A stretch of 11,750 nt of DNA from IMG/VR virus record IMGVR_UViG_2585427760_000003; one strand, 5' to 3'. Below are positions 4,319 to 11,390 of the stretch, piece after piece. A model generated the notes under the pieces. It searched no databases and was not told the DNA's origin. It worked only from the letters and a program-made list of their open reading frames with translations. A program made the translations under genes and the position numbers. Numbering within the stretch: position 1 is the stretch's first letter; each line of letters begins with the position of its first letter. The DNA comes from a virus (Duplodnaviria; Heunggongvirae; Uroviricota; Caudoviricetes).

Positions 4319-5401
4319 TTAGAACTGGTAAACCATACCTACAGCAACGATATCATCGGTAGCAACGCCAGATGCTTTCGTGAAATCGCTCTTATCAATC
4401 AGGTTGATTTTGTAGTCAACAAAAGTGGACATATTTTTGTTGAAGTAATAGGTTGCACCTACATCAACATATTCAACCAGGTCCTGATCACCCCAAACAC
4501 CCAAGTCTTTTCCTTTAGAATGCAGGTAAGCAACGGATGGACGCAGGCCGAAGTCGAACTGATATTGTGCAACAGCTTCGAAGTTTTGTGCTTTGTTGGC
4601 AATATGGTTATTACCAAAAACAGTCATGTTCTGGGTTTCAGAATAGGTGGTGGCCAGATAGATGTTGTTCGCATCATATTTCAGACCAGCTGCCCATACT
4701 TCAGCATTTTGACCAGAAGCATTCAGACCGTTGTTACCGTAGATAACCTGATTATTAGTGCGATCAGATTTAGCATAGGTTGCACCCACGCCGAATCCTT
4801 CATACTCATAAGTAGTTGAGAAACCGAAACCATCGCCATTAGCTTCAGTTACTTCATTTCGGTCATTTTTGCCCTGATACTGAGCTGCAAAGTTCAGGCC
4901 ATCAACCAGACCAAAGAAGTCGTTGTTACGATAAGTTGCAACACCTGTGGTGCGACCAGTCATGAACACATCTGTTTGGGTCCAGGTATCGCCACCGAAT
5001 TCTGGCAGAACGTCAGTCCACGCACCGATGTCGTATGCTACACCGTAGTTACGGCCGTAATCGATTGAGCCGTAGTCACCGAATTTCAGGCCAGCGAAGG
5101 CAAGACGGGTTTTATCTTTGGAGGAACCTTGAGATTCAGCGCGGTTGCCTTTGAATTCATATTCCCACTGACCGAAACCAGTCAGTTGATCGTTGATTTG
5201 GGTTTCACCTTTGAAGCCAAGACGGGCATAAGTAGTATCACCATCATCTGCATCATTAGAGGAGAAGTAGTGCTTAGCATTAACTTTCCCGTACAGATCC
5301 AGCTTGTTACTGTCTTTATTATAAATTTCAGCTGCCTGAGCAGACATCGCCATCAGTACTGATGCAGCTACAGCAGAAATTGCCACTGTTAATTTTTTCA
5401 T
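4319..5401 (-). CDS. nmpC: Outer-membrane general porin NmpC (OmpC/OmpF/PhoE family), apparently intact, 360 aa
   Basis: Signal peptide [23 protein letters not shown] then [16 protein letters not shown]; porin motifs throughout; C-terminal ...VGMVYQF typical of beta-barrel porins; placed on the opposite strand between Q and the lysis genes as in DLP12. Confidence 0.9.
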
Positions 5402-7437: not shown

Positions 7438-7836
7438 ATGGAATTGGCAAGTGAATTTTCTGGCATGCTTAAGTCGTCAGGTGTTCGGTCAGCGTTCTTT
7501 GTTGAAATGCTGATGCACGGCGGACTTATGGCAACAATGAGACGTGTAATGGAAGACCAGAGAAAAGAACCTCCTCAGGTATACGTTTTGTCATCGAAGA
7601 AAACTGGGCTAACCAAAATTGGGTATTCATCCAACATTCCACAACGCATCAAATCGCTTGGCAACTCTGGACCAGACTGCTTGAAGCTTGAGTGCCTGAT
7701 CCCTGGTGGAAGAGAAACTGAAAACATGCTTCATCGCAAATTTGCCGCAAAGAGAAAGCACGGTGAATGGTTCGCCCTGTCCAAGGATGACATTGAGGGA
7801 TTGAAATCTGTAGCGATTACTTCTGATGGCTATTAA
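7438..7836 (+). CDS. T5orf172 / GIY-YIG-like domain protein, 132 aa (cargo gene at the position occupied by bor in lambda)
   Basis: C-terminal ~85 residues QVYVLSSKKTGLTKIGYSSNIPQRIKSLGNSGPDCLKLECLIPGGRETENMLHRKFAAKRKHGEWFALSKDDIEGL fit the T5orf172 pattern as I recall it (YVL...KIGYT/S...R...EWF); weak SD; an upstream in-frame 24-codon ORF (7348-7422) is separated by a single TAA. Confidence 0.6.
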   Translation: MELASEFSGMLKSSGVRSAFFVEMLMHGGLMATMRRVMEDQRKEPPQVYVLSSKKTGLTKIGYSSNIPQRIKSLGNSGPDCLKLECLIPGGRETENMLHRKFAAKRKHGEWFALSKDDIEGLKSVAITSDGY

Positions 7837-8514
7837 TGCTTGTTTAGAGCAATTTTCATAACAACTCTTCATTACAAAGCCCATCTACTGGTGGGCTTGA
7901 TAATGAAACCGTGATTTACATCCCCACAATCCGGGTATGTAAAAGATAGTTCAGGCGAGAACGGATTTAACTAAATCTGTGCGCCACCAGTTAACGGCAG
8001 TACCACGAAACAACCCAAGCCAGTAAGTGGGGAAATAACACCGGCAGCCACTGAAAGATGAACCTCCTGCCTTATGGCAAAAAAGATTCTTTGTGGTGGC
8101 GGACTGATGGAAAGACATCCTAATTTCAGCCAAACATTGAAGGAGTTGTTATGTCAGCAGAAGGTTTCAATAACCCATCAAAATTCCGGGATGAGTGGGA
8201 TAGCAGCGTAAAGAGTAAGTGATGCCATCACAAAAGCCATTCCCTACAGAGTGGCTTTGATAATGGCTTATACCCTACACGGGATAACTTAACTGATATC
8301 CTTTTTAAAGGATAAAGGTATTCAAGCCTGACACATCATGCGCTGTATCGTCGCCGTATTCCCGTATTAACAGAGACCGTAGCCCGACGGGGAACTCCTT
8401 CTGCGCGAGTGTGCGGGAATAATCAAAAACGATGCACACCGGGGTTACCGGGTACACATATTTCATCATGCCAGCGAGTCCGGTTCTGGCACGGAAGAAA
8501 CCGGACGTTATGAT

Positions 8515-8925
8515 TTAGTGCGGAAATATTTGTGTAGTGTTCTGAATGTTCTCAGTAAAGAGTAATGAATTATCAAAGGTATAGTAATACCTTTTGTTTT
8601 CGTGGATATTTGTAATCCATCTGAAAACCCCTGCTGTAGCAAGATTTTTCCTGTATTCGTAAAATGATAACTCTCCTGATTTGAATCCTTTTAATGTGGT
8701 TTCTATAAGGCATTTATTTTTTGAAAATCTTACATTTACAACCTTACCCTGTCCTTTTATTAAAACCGTATTATCGTTTTCAAGAACAAGATGAATATTC
8801 TCTGTGGCTAAATAGTAAATGTAATGTGAGACATTGTGACGTTTTAGTTCAGAATAAAACCAGTGATAGTTTAAATTATTTCGCACTTTATCGAATATTT
8901 GTTTAAAAATGGCAACCTGAGCCAT
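8515..8925 (-). CDS. Hypothetical AT-rich protein, 136 aa, no signal peptide or TM segment; possibly equivalent to the protein annotated in K-12 DLP12 as YbcV (recollection, unverified)
   Basis: Minus-strand ORF in a visibly AT-rich segment; likely start at the second Met (8925, GGAAGG-like SD 7 nt upstream) giving [31 protein letters not shown]...; Tyr/Asn-rich, soluble-looking. Confidence 0.6.
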
Positions 8926-8982
8926 TGTAGTACCTTCCATGTGATATGAAGGTACCTAGTCTGCACGATTATCTAAATTGCT

Positions 8983-9216
8983 TCAATCTGGTCTGACCTG
9001 CTTTCTGAGCAATTCAGTAATGTCACTCTTTTCTTTGTTTGCTTCAGGCGAAACTCTTTTTTCTGAGCACAGTCTTCGGCGGCAGGCTTCAATGACCCAG
9101 GCTGAGAAATTCCCGGACCCTTTTTGATCAAGAGCGATGTTAATTTGTTCAATCATTTGGTTAGGAAAGCGGATGTTGCGGGTTGTTGTTCTGCGGGTTC
9201 TGTTCTTCGTTGACAT
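8983..9216 (-). CDS. Small putative ribbon-helix-helix (CopG/Arc-like) DNA-binding protein, 77 aa
   Basis: Basic N-terminus MSTKNRTRRTTTRNIRFPNQMIEQINIALDQKGSGNFSAWVIEACRRRL fits a beta-strand/helix/helix RHH layout; codirectional with and 57 bp upstream of the 136-aa gene; ~200 bp from cosN. Confidence 0.5.
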   Translation of the reverse strand: MSTKNRTRRTTTRNIRFPNQMIEQINIALDQKGSGNFSAWVIEACRRRLCSEKRVSPEANKEKSDITELLRKQVRPD

Positions 9217-9359
9217 GAGGTTGTCCCGTATTCAGTGTCGCTGATTTGTATTGTCTGAAGTTGTTTTTACGTTAAGTTGATGCAGATCAATTAATATGAT
9301 ACCTGCGTCATAATTGATTATTTGACGTGGTTTGATGGCGTAGATGCACGTTGTGACAT

Positions 9360-9604
9360 GCAGATGATAATTATTATCATTTTGCGGGTCCTTTCCGGCG
9401 ATCCGACAGGTTACGGGGCGGCGACCTCGCGGGTTTTCGCTATTTATGAAAATTTTCCGGTTTAAGGCGTTTCCGTTCTTCTTCGTCGTAACTTAATGTT
9501 TTTATTTAAAATACCCCCTGAAAAGAAAGGAAACGACAGGTGCTGAAAACGAACTTTTGGGCCTTTGTCGTTTCCTTTCTCTGTTTTTGGCCGTGGAATG
9601 AACA
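9360..9604. other. Lambda-type cos site: cosQ/cosN/cosB, with the cosN 12-nt cohesive-end sequence GGGCGGCGACCT at 9416-9427
   Basis: 9380-9600 is near-identical to my recollection of the lambda genome left end and preceding right end (..GTTACG GGGCGGCGACCT CGCGGGTTTTCGCTATTTATGAAAATTTTCCGGTTTAAGGCG...); inverted Nu1-binding R-site-like repeats AGAAAGGAAACGACAG / CTGTCGTTTCCTTTCT at ~9523-9580. Confidence 0.85.
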
Positions 9605-10429
9605 ATGGAAGTCAACAAAAAGCAGCTGGCTGACATTTTCGGTGCGAGTATCCGTACCATTCAGAACTGGCAGGAACAGGGAATGCCCGTTCTGCGAGGC
9701 GGTGGCAAGGGTAATGAGGTGCTTTATGACTCTGCCGCCGTTATAAGATGGTATGCCGAAAGGGATGCTGAAATTGAGAACGAAAAGCTGCGCCGGGAAG
9801 TTGAAGAACTGCGGCAGGCCAGCGAGACAGATCTCCAGCCAGGGACTATTGAGTACGAACGCCATCGACTTACGCGTGCGCAGGCCGACGCACAGGAGCT
9901 GAAAAATGCCAGAGACTCCGCTGAAGTGGTGGAAACCGCATTCTGTACTTTCGTGCTGTCGCGGATCGCAGGTGAAATTGCCAGTATTCTCGACGGGATC
10001 CCCCTGTCGGTGCAGCGGCGTTTCCCGAACGGCACGGTCGATGTGTTCCGCGGCTGGGTCAGCAGTATCGGTAAGGCGGTGACGGCGAAGGAAGTGATTA
10101 CCCGCACGGTGAAAGTCACCAACGTAGGACGTCCGTCGATGGCAGAAGATCGCAGCACGGTAACAGCGGCAACCGGCATGACCGTGACGCCTGCCAGCAC
10201 CTCGGTGGTGAAAGGGCAGAGCACGACGCTGACCGTGGCATTCCAGCCGGAAGGCGCAACCGACAAGAGCTTCCGTGCGGTGTCTGCGGATAAAACAAAA
10301 GCCACCGTGTCGGTCAGTGGTATGACCATCACCGTGAAAGGTGTTGCTGCAGGCAAGGTCAACATTCCGGTCGTATCCGGTAATGGTGAGTTTGCTGCGG
10401 TTGCAGAAATCAACGTCACCGCCAGTTAA
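9605..10429 (+). CDS. nohD: Chimeric ORF: terminase small subunit Nu1 homolog (residues ~1-140) fused in frame to the C-terminal Ig-like (Big_2) domain of major tail protein V; 274 aa
   Basis: [46 protein letters not shown]...[14 protein letters not shown] matches lambda Nu1; from ...[60 protein letters not shown]... to ...AEINVTAS matches the lambda gpV C-terminus from memory; switch at ~10018-10027 within shared CGTTTCCCG. The nohD symbol applies to the Nu1-like part only. Confidence 0.85.
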
Positions 10430-10805: not shown

Positions 10806-11390
10806 ATGGCATTCAGAATGAGTGAACAACCACGGACCATAAAAATTTATAATCTGCTGGCCGGAACTAATGAATTTATTGGTGAAGGTGATGCATATAT
10901 TCCGCCTCATACAGGTCTGCCAGCAAACAGTACCGATATTGCACCGCCAGATATTCCTGCTGGCTTTGTGGCTGTTTTCAACAGTGATGAGGCATCGTGG
11001 CATCTCGTTGAAGACCATCGGGGTAAAACGGTTTATGACGTAGCGTCAGGGGACGCGTTATTTATTTCTGAACTCGGTCCGTTACCGGAAAATGTTACCT
11101 GGTTATCGCCGGAAGGGGAGTTTCAGAAGTGGAACGGCACAGCCTGGGTGAAAGATGCAGAAGCAGAAAAACTGTTCCGGATCCGGGAGGCGGAAGAAAC
11201 AAAAAACAGCCTGATGCAGGTAGCCAGTGAGCATATTGCGCCACTTCAGGATGCTGTAGATCTGGAAATCGCAACGGAGGAAGAAACCTCATTGCTGGAA
11301 GCCTGGAAAAAGTATCGGGTGTTGCTGAACCGTGTTGATACATCAACTGCACCTGATATTGAGTGGCCTACGAACCCTGTCAGGGAGTAA
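10806..11390 (+). CDS. tfaD: Tail fiber assembly protein Tfa, 194 aa, intact
   Basis: [79 protein letters not shown]... is near-identical to lambda Tfa with scattered substitutions; ATG overlaps the stf-frame stop (TAATG). The tfaD symbol is by synteny with DLP12. Confidence 0.85.

Follow-up and report, generated by a model that had tools for sequence, protein, structure and literature searches.

Introduction

Two small gene families of lambda-like prophages, DUF3950 (YnfO and YlcI) and DUF1398 (YdfO and YbcV), are already catalogued. In the Qin prophage of Escherichia coli K-12 they are annotated as a pair, YnfO (b4533) and YdfO (b1549), in which a 234-bp gene, a 57-bp gap and a 411-bp gene lie beside nohA and cos. 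In phage lambda and in the DLP12 prophage both families also occur as minus-strand genes, located after the lysis genes and before cos, but there ybcW/lambdap79, which is encoded on the opposite strand, separates them, so that in lambda and DLP12 the two genes cannot be a simple operon. The YlcI homologue of lambda (NC_001416, 48109-48303, minus strand) does not differ from the K-12 protein, and it is unannotated in the reference record.

The K-12 homologues ybcV and ydfO are transcribed and regulated by the host (PMC7660256, PMC4077768). In a pdhR mutant the ybcV mRNA is down 10-fold (PMC7660256), and ydfO is induced ~117-fold by an ionic liquid (PMC4077768). It was also stated that YdfO overexpression leads to oxidative-stress resistance (PMC4077768, citing Wang et al. 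2010); we discarded this report because the protein that Wang et al. name is YfdO of CPS-53. The lambda member of DUF1398, lambdap78, was found to be non-essential by CRISPRi (PMC10695390) and lambda recombinants that took ybcV::kan from DLP12 are viable (PMC3945230). The intervening lambdap79 was reported to trigger the Vulcan NADase defence system (bioRxiv 10.64898/2026.09.04.749371). In the literature that we searched, no function is assigned to DUF1398, DUF3950, YbcV, YdfO, YcgX, YlcI or YnfO. The two families can be described as 'known unknowns': both are catalogued, a structure is available for one of them, and K-12 carries annotations for the pair.

In this paper we looked at such a pair in a stretch of 11,750 nucleotides of viral DNA, which we call the window. 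A preliminary description, made from the sequence of the window, had proposed that the pair resembles a toxin-antitoxin, abortive-infection or superinfection-exclusion module. We analyzed both proteins, the DNA around them and their distribution in phages and bacterial genomes.

Location of the gene pair in the prophage

The window corresponds to a degraded lambdoid prophage that occupies the DLP12 position in E. coli (the argU/intD side) and not that of Qin. In window order it begins with an IS1 fragment and a truncated fimZ, followed by a tRNA-Arg (936-1009), intD, rusA and a Q-like antiterminator, an intact nmpC/ompC-like porin, and the holin, lysozyme and Rz genes. A MUG113/T5orf172 (GIY-YIG-like) gene (7438-7836) lies between the lysis genes and the DUF1398/DUF3950 pair, and past cos a deletion has fused a Nu1 gene with sequence for the tail-tube protein V, namely its C-terminus and its Ig-like domain (9605-10429). 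The DUF1398 gene (8515-8925) and the DUF3950 gene (8983-9216) are codirectional on the minus strand and 57 bp apart, as first described. Over 1.5 kb that span both, the sequence matches that of E. coli strain 14EC033 at 100% identity, and in this strain RefSeq places two CDSs with identical coordinates, 'DUF1398 domain-containing protein' and 'YlcI/YnfO family protein'. The DNA of this region is matched in 4879 of the 5426 complete E. coli genomes (~90%), where the median number of matching places is two, and homologous DNA is present in lambda itself.

The proximity of the pair to cos was also confirmed. GGGTCCT (9386-9392) and the cohesive-end 12-mer GGGCGGCGACCT (9416-9427), both exact matches on the plus strand, which we take to be lambda cosQ and cosN, lie 170-200 bp past the DUF3950 start codon at 9216. 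Located between the lysis cassette and cos, both genes are antisense to the Q-dependent late transcript, which passes through the lysis genes and cos and continues into Nu1. No Rfam RNA family was found within 7800-9650.

The DUF1398 protein

The HMM searches that the preliminary description had suggested place both proteins above the curated cut-offs of their families. The gene at 8515-8925 (minus strand) encodes a 136 amino acid protein of the ydfO/ybcV/lambdap78 family, based on Pfam, PDB and RefSeq CDS matches. Pfam PF07166 (DUF1398) is matched along its full profile (1-119 of 119; E 2.4e-43, 147.4 bits against a cut-off of 22), and residues 1-135 match PDB 2HH8 (E 7.4e-68), the solution NMR structure of soluble YdfO, an 80%-identical paralogue. 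The protein contains 10 Tyr and 15 Asn, which agrees with its first characterization as Tyr/Asn-rich. A GGAAGG Shine-Dalgarno-like sequence is found 7-12 nt ahead of the ATG at 8925, and this favours the 136 amino acid start over a 141 amino acid start. The AF2 model, which was created from a single sequence, has a pLDDT of 51 and a TM of only 0.31 to 2HH8 and does not reproduce that fold, so that the fold identity with 2HH8 rests on the sequence match. Other Foldseek matches of this poor model, which resembles 2HH8 only via its sequence, were discarded. A profile search of the PDB sequences with diverse DUF1398 proteins gave nothing except 2HH8.

The larger gene had been identified with K-12 YbcV. 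At the level of the family (DUF1398) this is correct, but the nearest K-12 counterpart is YnfO-YdfO of Qin, where gene lengths and gap (234/57/411) are identical to those of the window. In DLP12 ybcW intervenes. The allele of the window is nevertheless closer to DLP12 ybcV (dS 0.38) than to ydfO (dS 0.70), while the YnfO N-terminal domain is almost identical to that of Qin (dS 0.03). Since one gene is near Qin and the other nearer ybcV, the pair in the window is a recombinant. Between the window, ybcV and ydfO alleles dS is 0.38-0.70, dN 0.10-0.14 and omega 0.20-0.34; DUF1398 is under purifying selection and hence is a real gene. The identity to lambdap78 is 77% at the protein level.

The GC content of the DUF1398 gene is 30.9% versus a window mean of 45.7%, which is within the lowest 1.6% of 411-nt windows. 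The suggestion that low GC reflects a separate origin fits this gene well. The idea of one AT-rich unit holds for DUF1398 and not for the DUF3950 gene, whose GC content of 44.9% equals that of the window as a whole.

Older records of this family read 'putative envelope protein', PHROG 413 is labelled 'head protein', and RefSeq uses the latter label for lambdap78. These labels would make the 136 amino acid protein a component of the virion head or of the cell envelope. The preliminary description had already doubted the envelope label, and we agree: neither a signal peptide nor a membrane segment was found in the protein, in which the maximal 19-residue Kyte-Doolittle mean is 0.39 and the GRAVY is -0.43, and the legacy label has been dropped from RefSeq K-12. 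The paralogue YdfO is soluble by NMR, the gene reads against the structural genes of the late operon, lambdap78 is dispensable in lambda, solitary chromosomal paralogues exist outside prophages, and DUF1398 is missing from most of the lambdoid phages that have DUF3950. Based on these data the head or envelope reading is effectively refuted, and both labels are unsupported for DUF1398.

Analysis of the sequence variation may hint at how the protein acts. In a comparison of 14 diverse DUF1398 proteins no residues other than L27, T41 and G99 were invariant, and within the lambdoid group the variation clusters in residues 69-85. With few invariant residues and variation that is focused at one site, a binding protein would fit DUF1398 better than an enzyme.

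The DUF3950 protein

The DUF3950 gene (8983-9216, minus strand) encodes a 77 amino acid protein that is basic, with 17 Lys and Arg versus nine Asp and Glu, as had been noted. It matches Pfam PF13132 (DUF3950; E 5e-21, 74.6 bits against a cut-off of 25), NCBIfam NF041551 (YlcI_YnfO_N; 35.7 against a cut-off of 30) and PHROG 949 (E 8e-34). A tblastn match to a 'transcriptional repressor' of a Pasteurella phage was rejected as spurious, since the repressor gene is encoded on the other strand.

An alignment of 35 homologues divides the protein into a conserved YlcI/YnfO N-terminal domain, residues 1-50 (9067-9216, minus strand), and a variable C-terminal tail, residues 51-77 (8983-9066, minus strand), which is of the Qin type. 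Past residue 50 the tails of the homologues are unrelated, which indicates that a mosaic joint coincides with the end of the conserved domain. The corresponding protein in lambda and DLP12 has only 64 amino acids and a different tail. The GC content falls stepwise along the pair, from 48% in the first 50 codons of DUF3950 (48.0%) through 39% in its tail (39.3%) to 31% in DUF1398.

When the first 50 codons are compared with the copy of an Stx2 phage, in which the upstream DNA is unrelated, dS is 0.92, dN is 0.063 and omega is 0.07. The N-terminal domain is under purifying selection and belongs to a real gene. A conserved antisense open reading frame as the cause of this conservation was ruled out: the antisense frames are stopped in four of seven variants, and the conserved frame is thus DUF3950's own.

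The N-terminal region had been described as ribbon-helix-helix-like. It reads RNIRFPN, QMIEQINIALDQKG, SGN and FSAWVIEACRRRL, which follows a pattern of strand, helix, G-x-S/N turn and helix over ~45 residues. The AF2 monomer, predicted from the 35-sequence alignment, shows an extended N-terminus and helices at residues 19-32 and 34-52 with a pLDDT of 83-86, while the pLDDT of the tail is 54-57. In Foldseek against the PDB the model gave seven matches, none of them significant, one of which is the ribbon-helix-helix antitoxin ParD2 (7r5a_D, TM 0.56, target-normalised); the neighbours with the lowest rmsd belong to the ribbon-helix-helix class, again with no significant score, and include many antitoxins. 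In hhalign, Arc and the NikR N-terminal domain are aligned in register with DUF3950 at P ~0.05, with worse scores for controls and shuffles, and among the PHROGs there is a weak HicB-like match (E 0.007). The ribbon-helix-helix Pfam families and the PDB sequences gave no match. The pattern and the predicted helices thus agree with the first description, but no significant match in sequence, profile or structure was obtained, and we regard a ribbon-helix-helix fold of residues 1-50 as probable. On the model of this class, the domain would most likely dimerise and bind DNA.

The spacer and possible regulatory sites

The two genes are separated by a spacer (8926-8982, minus strand, 57 bp) with no terminator-like site, and in the Qin-type arrangement they may be co-transcribed. 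In a large protein database we found apparent DUF3950-DUF1398 'fusion' proteins (P0013, and P0014 with 233 amino acids and 761 members), which at first sight are Rosetta-stone evidence for a common function. These were rejected as gene-calling artefacts, as an in-frame TGA separates the two open reading frames. The spacer in related loci is 56, 57, 58 or 59 bp long, and therefore the common reading frame of the two genes is accidental.

At the 3' end of the DUF3950 open reading frame there is a palindrome, GGTCAGACC (8990-8998, minus strand), 65-73 bp upstream of the DUF1398 start codon, which is found once in the window versus 0.06 matches expected by chance. In K-12 the 3' end of ynfO holds a PdhR SELEX site, AAcaGGTcagACCAgaT (GGTcagACC), which is given for ynfO>ydfO (PMC7660256), and by its sequence and position the palindrome in the window appears to be the counterpart of this site, with a possible regulatory role. 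In DLP12 a PdhR site is found within the divergent ybcV/ybcW intergenic region (PMC7660256), which suggests that DUF1398 has a regulatory region of its own.

The region upstream of DUF3950 (9217-9385, minus strand) is the presumed promoter region and holds a second palindrome, ATGATAATAATTATCAT, ~150-165 nt 5' of the ATG. A consensus scan of the minus strand detected no sigma-70-like promoter ahead of either gene and no terminator-like site, so that we can only infer the DUF3950 promoter.

Distribution and exchange of the two genes

A key question regarding this locus is whether the two genes belong together. The preliminary description had suggested a check of whether the pair is conserved as a unit across prophages, and a lack of co-occurrence in other genomes was to count against its reading. 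Such a lack was seen in both directions, since each family occurs without the other. DUF3950 is found in 155 phage records and DUF1398 in 43, and at least 112 records have DUF3950 without DUF1398. In Stx-type phages DUF3950 is alone, 41 bp from a divergent module of HNH endonuclease, TerS and TerL, and late-strand genes follow.

One possible option, which we consider rather unlikely, is that the two genes are functionally unrelated neighbours. DUF3950 would serve the packaging or late region of the phage, for example by binding DNA beside cos and the terminase genes, and DUF1398, an independent moron, would have a separate promoter. DUF3950 indeed stays directly before the packaging module across unrelated cos/terminase systems (Nu1/A in lambda; HNH with TerS/TerL) and its N-terminal domain is nearly invariant across both packaging types; the intergenic PdhR site of DLP12 and the palindrome upstream of DUF1398 in the window also fit a separate promoter. 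However, DUF3950 is antisense to the late operon, so it is presumably poorly expressed during packaging. To our knowledge, classical accounts of lambda packaging include no DUF3950-like factor. The lambda-type and HNH-type upstream regions have only a single 11-mer in common, ACACTGAATAC, and this exceeds chance only marginally (~0.02 expected); as a candidate for an operator common to both types it was rejected as too weak.

For DUF1398 we scanned bacterial genomes with a six-sequence alignment, one genome per species, which returned 70 loci. DUF3950 was found upstream only at copies of about 72% identity or more, that is, at lambdoid right-end copies, many of which are lambda DNA that contaminates assemblies of unrelated taxa. 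None of the more distant DUF1398 genes that were found has a DUF3950 gene within 4 kb, and most of them are in ordinary chromosomal contexts. Examples are the ycgX-type genes of Escherichia and Citrobacter (44-53% identity), the solitary genes of Kluyvera, Klebsiella, Raoultella, Pseudocitrobacter and Salmonella diarizonae (34-39% identity) and that of Epilithonimonas.

By looking at the Qin-type pairs a tighter connection is seen. The 77 amino acid protein has DUF1398 directly downstream, with a gap of 56-59 bp, in 79 of 80 viral contigs, which are close relatives of one another; this linkage could reflect a functional tie and not just the close relationship of the DNA. In a set of 92 neighbouring pairs, YnfO proteins of identical sequence are found beside DUF1398 alleles that share as little as 75% identity, and pairwise distances of the two proteins do not correlate (r = 0.00), which indicates that recombination shuffles the two genes. 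Half of the sequenced lambda x DLP12 junctions adjoin cos (PMC3945230), and lambda escapees from Vulcan lose lambdap79, apparently via recombination with Qin (bioRxiv 10.64898/2026.09.04.749371). Such a lambda-Qin exchange should yield the ynfO-ydfO type of adjacency that is seen in the window.

These distributions bear on the toxin-antitoxin or abortive-infection hypothesis. In a type II module YnfO would be a ribbon-helix-helix antitoxin that autoregulates the operon and whose variable tail neutralises a DUF1398 toxin, and the toxin would be released when a phage infects or when the prophage is lost. The order of the genes, their sizes and their shared strand fit such a module, with the candidate DNA-binding gene upstream, as do the ribbon-helix-helix-like domain with its disordered variable tail, the many antitoxins among the best structural neighbours and the linkage of the Qin-type tail to DUF1398. 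Likewise, a clone that overexpresses ybcV was assigned to a 'glycogen-deficient' class, which also includes the toxins hokA and yoeB (PMC2853380). On the other side, DUF1398 is solitary in all the distant relatives found, DUF3950 is without DUF1398 in the majority of its phage records, an opposite-strand gene intervenes in lambda and DLP12, and the alleles of the partners do not co-vary. Type II toxin-antitoxin pairs typically overlap or are a few bases apart, versus 56-59 bp here. Neither protein matches a toxin family in Pfam or NCBIfam, or a PADLOC model; in PADLOC-DB 2.0 DUF1398 has only a chance-level match to Csx23 (E 0.022, 12.8 bits) and DUF3950 has none. YdfO was overproduced alone for NMR (2HH8), which suggests that it is not toxic, and in a TraDIS experiment it was ydfO, and not ynfO, that was without insertions, which is the opposite of the prediction (PMC5821084). 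The viability of lambda after knock-down of lambdap78 (PMC10695390) or with ybcV::kan (PMC3945230) also weighs against such a module. Based on this separate distribution, the missing allele co-variation and the missing toxin or defence matches, we consider such a module very unlikely; the proposal of a toxin-antitoxin, abortive-infection or superinfection-exclusion system is not supported and the pair should not be counted as one.

Possible functions of the pair

A more probable explanation, to which we give a probability of roughly 0.6, is that these are two conserved accessory genes of lambdoid phages in a Qin-type arrangement, a ribbon-helix-helix-like anchor and a swappable DUF1398 cargo that is expressed in the lysogen. 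The predicted DNA-binding dimer of the first 50 residues of DUF3950 would regulate its own promoter, and hence whatever lies downstream, and the gene may be the constant 'anchor' beside the packaging module in many lambdoid phage types. DUF1398 would be an AT-rich cargo gene, or moron, that was acquired separately. Its presence varies, in that related phages have the flanking genes side by side, and its GC content is deviant; by this foreign composition and variable presence it fits the definition of a moron. Its product is probably a soluble cytoplasmic alpha/beta protein without conserved catalytic residues, which may be expressed in the lysogen and there probably binds a macromolecule of the host or the phage rather than acting as an enzyme, and it is dispensable for phage growth. 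The gene may be under the control of the host, through PdhR and probably also through nucleoid silencing of AT-rich DNA.

A more far-reaching hypothesis, which we find quite unlikely, is that the near-invariant ribbon-helix-helix anchor marks a cos-proximal cargo slot that is common to lambdoid phages with different packaging systems and that the swappable tail is matched to the cargo. DUF1398 would then be a lysogen-expressed binder, anti-phage or host-modulating, that is sensed or restrained by the tail. If true, this would be a non-canonical regulator-effector system and not a classical toxin-antitoxin pair.

The small gene is left out of the reference lambda record, yet it is strongly constrained, it probably encodes a DNA-binding protein, and its position beside the packaging module is kept across lambdoid types. 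The target of DUF3950, if found, would help to complete the gene map of lambda, in which few gaps are left.

Comparison with known systems

Two groups of known systems resemble the parts of this locus. DUF3950 is similar to the ribbon-helix-helix repressors and antitoxins (Arc and Mnt of P22, CopG, the NikR N-terminal domain, ParD, RelB and mycobacterial MazE) in its size, its short basic N-terminus and its strand-helix-turn-helix order. It differs from this class in that sequence, profile and fold scores are below significance and in that no cognate toxin family is found downstream. The gene of P22 Mnt sits in the late region and reads against it, like DUF3950.

The lambdap79 gene, which in lambda stands between the two families, is absent from the window, and here DUF1398 directly follows DUF3950. 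As a cargo gene DUF1398 is comparable to the lambda morons bor and lom, since it is set among the late genes, antisense to them, has an atypical composition, is dispensable in the lytic cycle and is variably present. The products of bor and lom belong to the envelope and their phenotypes are known, whereas DUF1398 looks cytoplasmic; in lambda bor likewise reads against the late transcript.

Annotation of the Two Families in Phage Lambda and in the Databases

At the extreme right end of the phage lambda reference record, NC_001416.1 (48109-48303, minus strand; 2210-2404 in our lambda right-end locus, L165), lies an unannotated YlcI homologue of 64 amino acids. It does not differ from K-12 YlcI at any residue, and purifying selection on its domain is strong. 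The DUF1398 gene, lambdap78, is annotated in the same record with a long start that gives a 177 amino acid protein and with the label ‘head protein’, which was probably propagated from the phage protein family PHROG 413.

Dozens of apparent homologues of ~77% identity were found on contigs that are assigned to Pseudomonas, Kitasatospora, Brevibacillus, Cohnella, Flavobacterium and other taxa and have lengths of ~3.5 kb or 48.5 kb (genome-contig matches L015-L036 and L048-L051; proteins P0018-P0120). These are lambda DNA remaining in the assemblies, most likely from a sequencing control or spike-in, and frameshift-like length variants are common among them. Proteins of 233 amino acids that seem to fuse DUF3950 to DUF1398 (L001:1274-1975; P0013 and P0014; a 761-member cluster) are not genuine either, as the gene calls took an in-frame TGA as a sense codon. 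An error of another kind exists in the literature, where YdfO overexpression was said to increase resistance to oxidative stress (PMC4077768, citing PMC3105296). This is a mis-citation, since the cited work reports YfdO of prophage CPS-53.

Surroundings of the Gene Pair

In the window, the position held by bor in lambda and DLP12 is occupied by a plus-strand gene (7438-7836) for a GIY-YIG-like MUG113/T5orf172 protein of 132 amino acids, which weakly matches the candidate system PDC-S57 in PADLOC (E 4e-6). This gene may be further cargo of the lysis-to-cos slot that holds the DUF3950–DUF1398 pair. It is followed by ~680 bp free of annotated genes (7837-8514), which contain an unmatched minus-strand ORF of 54 amino acids (8305-8469) and a strong minus-strand hairpin at 8224-8267 (-33 kcal/mol, z = -3.6; none of 200 shuffles was equally stable). 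The hairpin, which lacks a clean U-tract, could be the terminator of the ynfO-ydfO transcript. On the opposite, late-transcript strand a terminator-like hairpin (9176-9196) is found inside the codons of the DUF3950 basic N-terminus, ~200 bp before cos.

Upstream of DUF3950, the 11-mer ACACTGAATAC (9229-9239, minus strand) is common to the lambda-type and HNH-type regions, with ~0.02 such matches expected by chance. In the HNH-type loci (L163 and L164) it lies about 80-97 nt upstream of DUF3950, in the opposite orientation to the lambda-type copy, and the regions are otherwise unrelated. The 11-mer is a weak operator candidate.

Prophage Decay

A single plus-strand ORF (9605-10429) encodes Nu1 (Pfam Phage_Nu1 positions 1-148) followed by a Big_2 domain and the C-terminal part of the tail-tube protein of lambda. 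The joint is a deletion by which all the head genes and most of the tail genes were lost. Within the tail-fibre-assembly gene there is a full-length plus-strand match to Rfam IS009 (11149-11347), which scores 229 bits where the gathering score is 117. At the other end (1-756), an IS1 fragment with an InsB-like ORF at 19-264 adjoins the fimZ ORF, which stops after ~132 residues; fimZ thus appears to be truncated by IS1 in this strain, in contrast to E. coli 14EC033. The nmpC/ompC-like porin gene (4319-5401, minus strand; 360 amino acids) is intact, unlike nmpC of K-12, for which the annotation gives an interrupted pseudogene.
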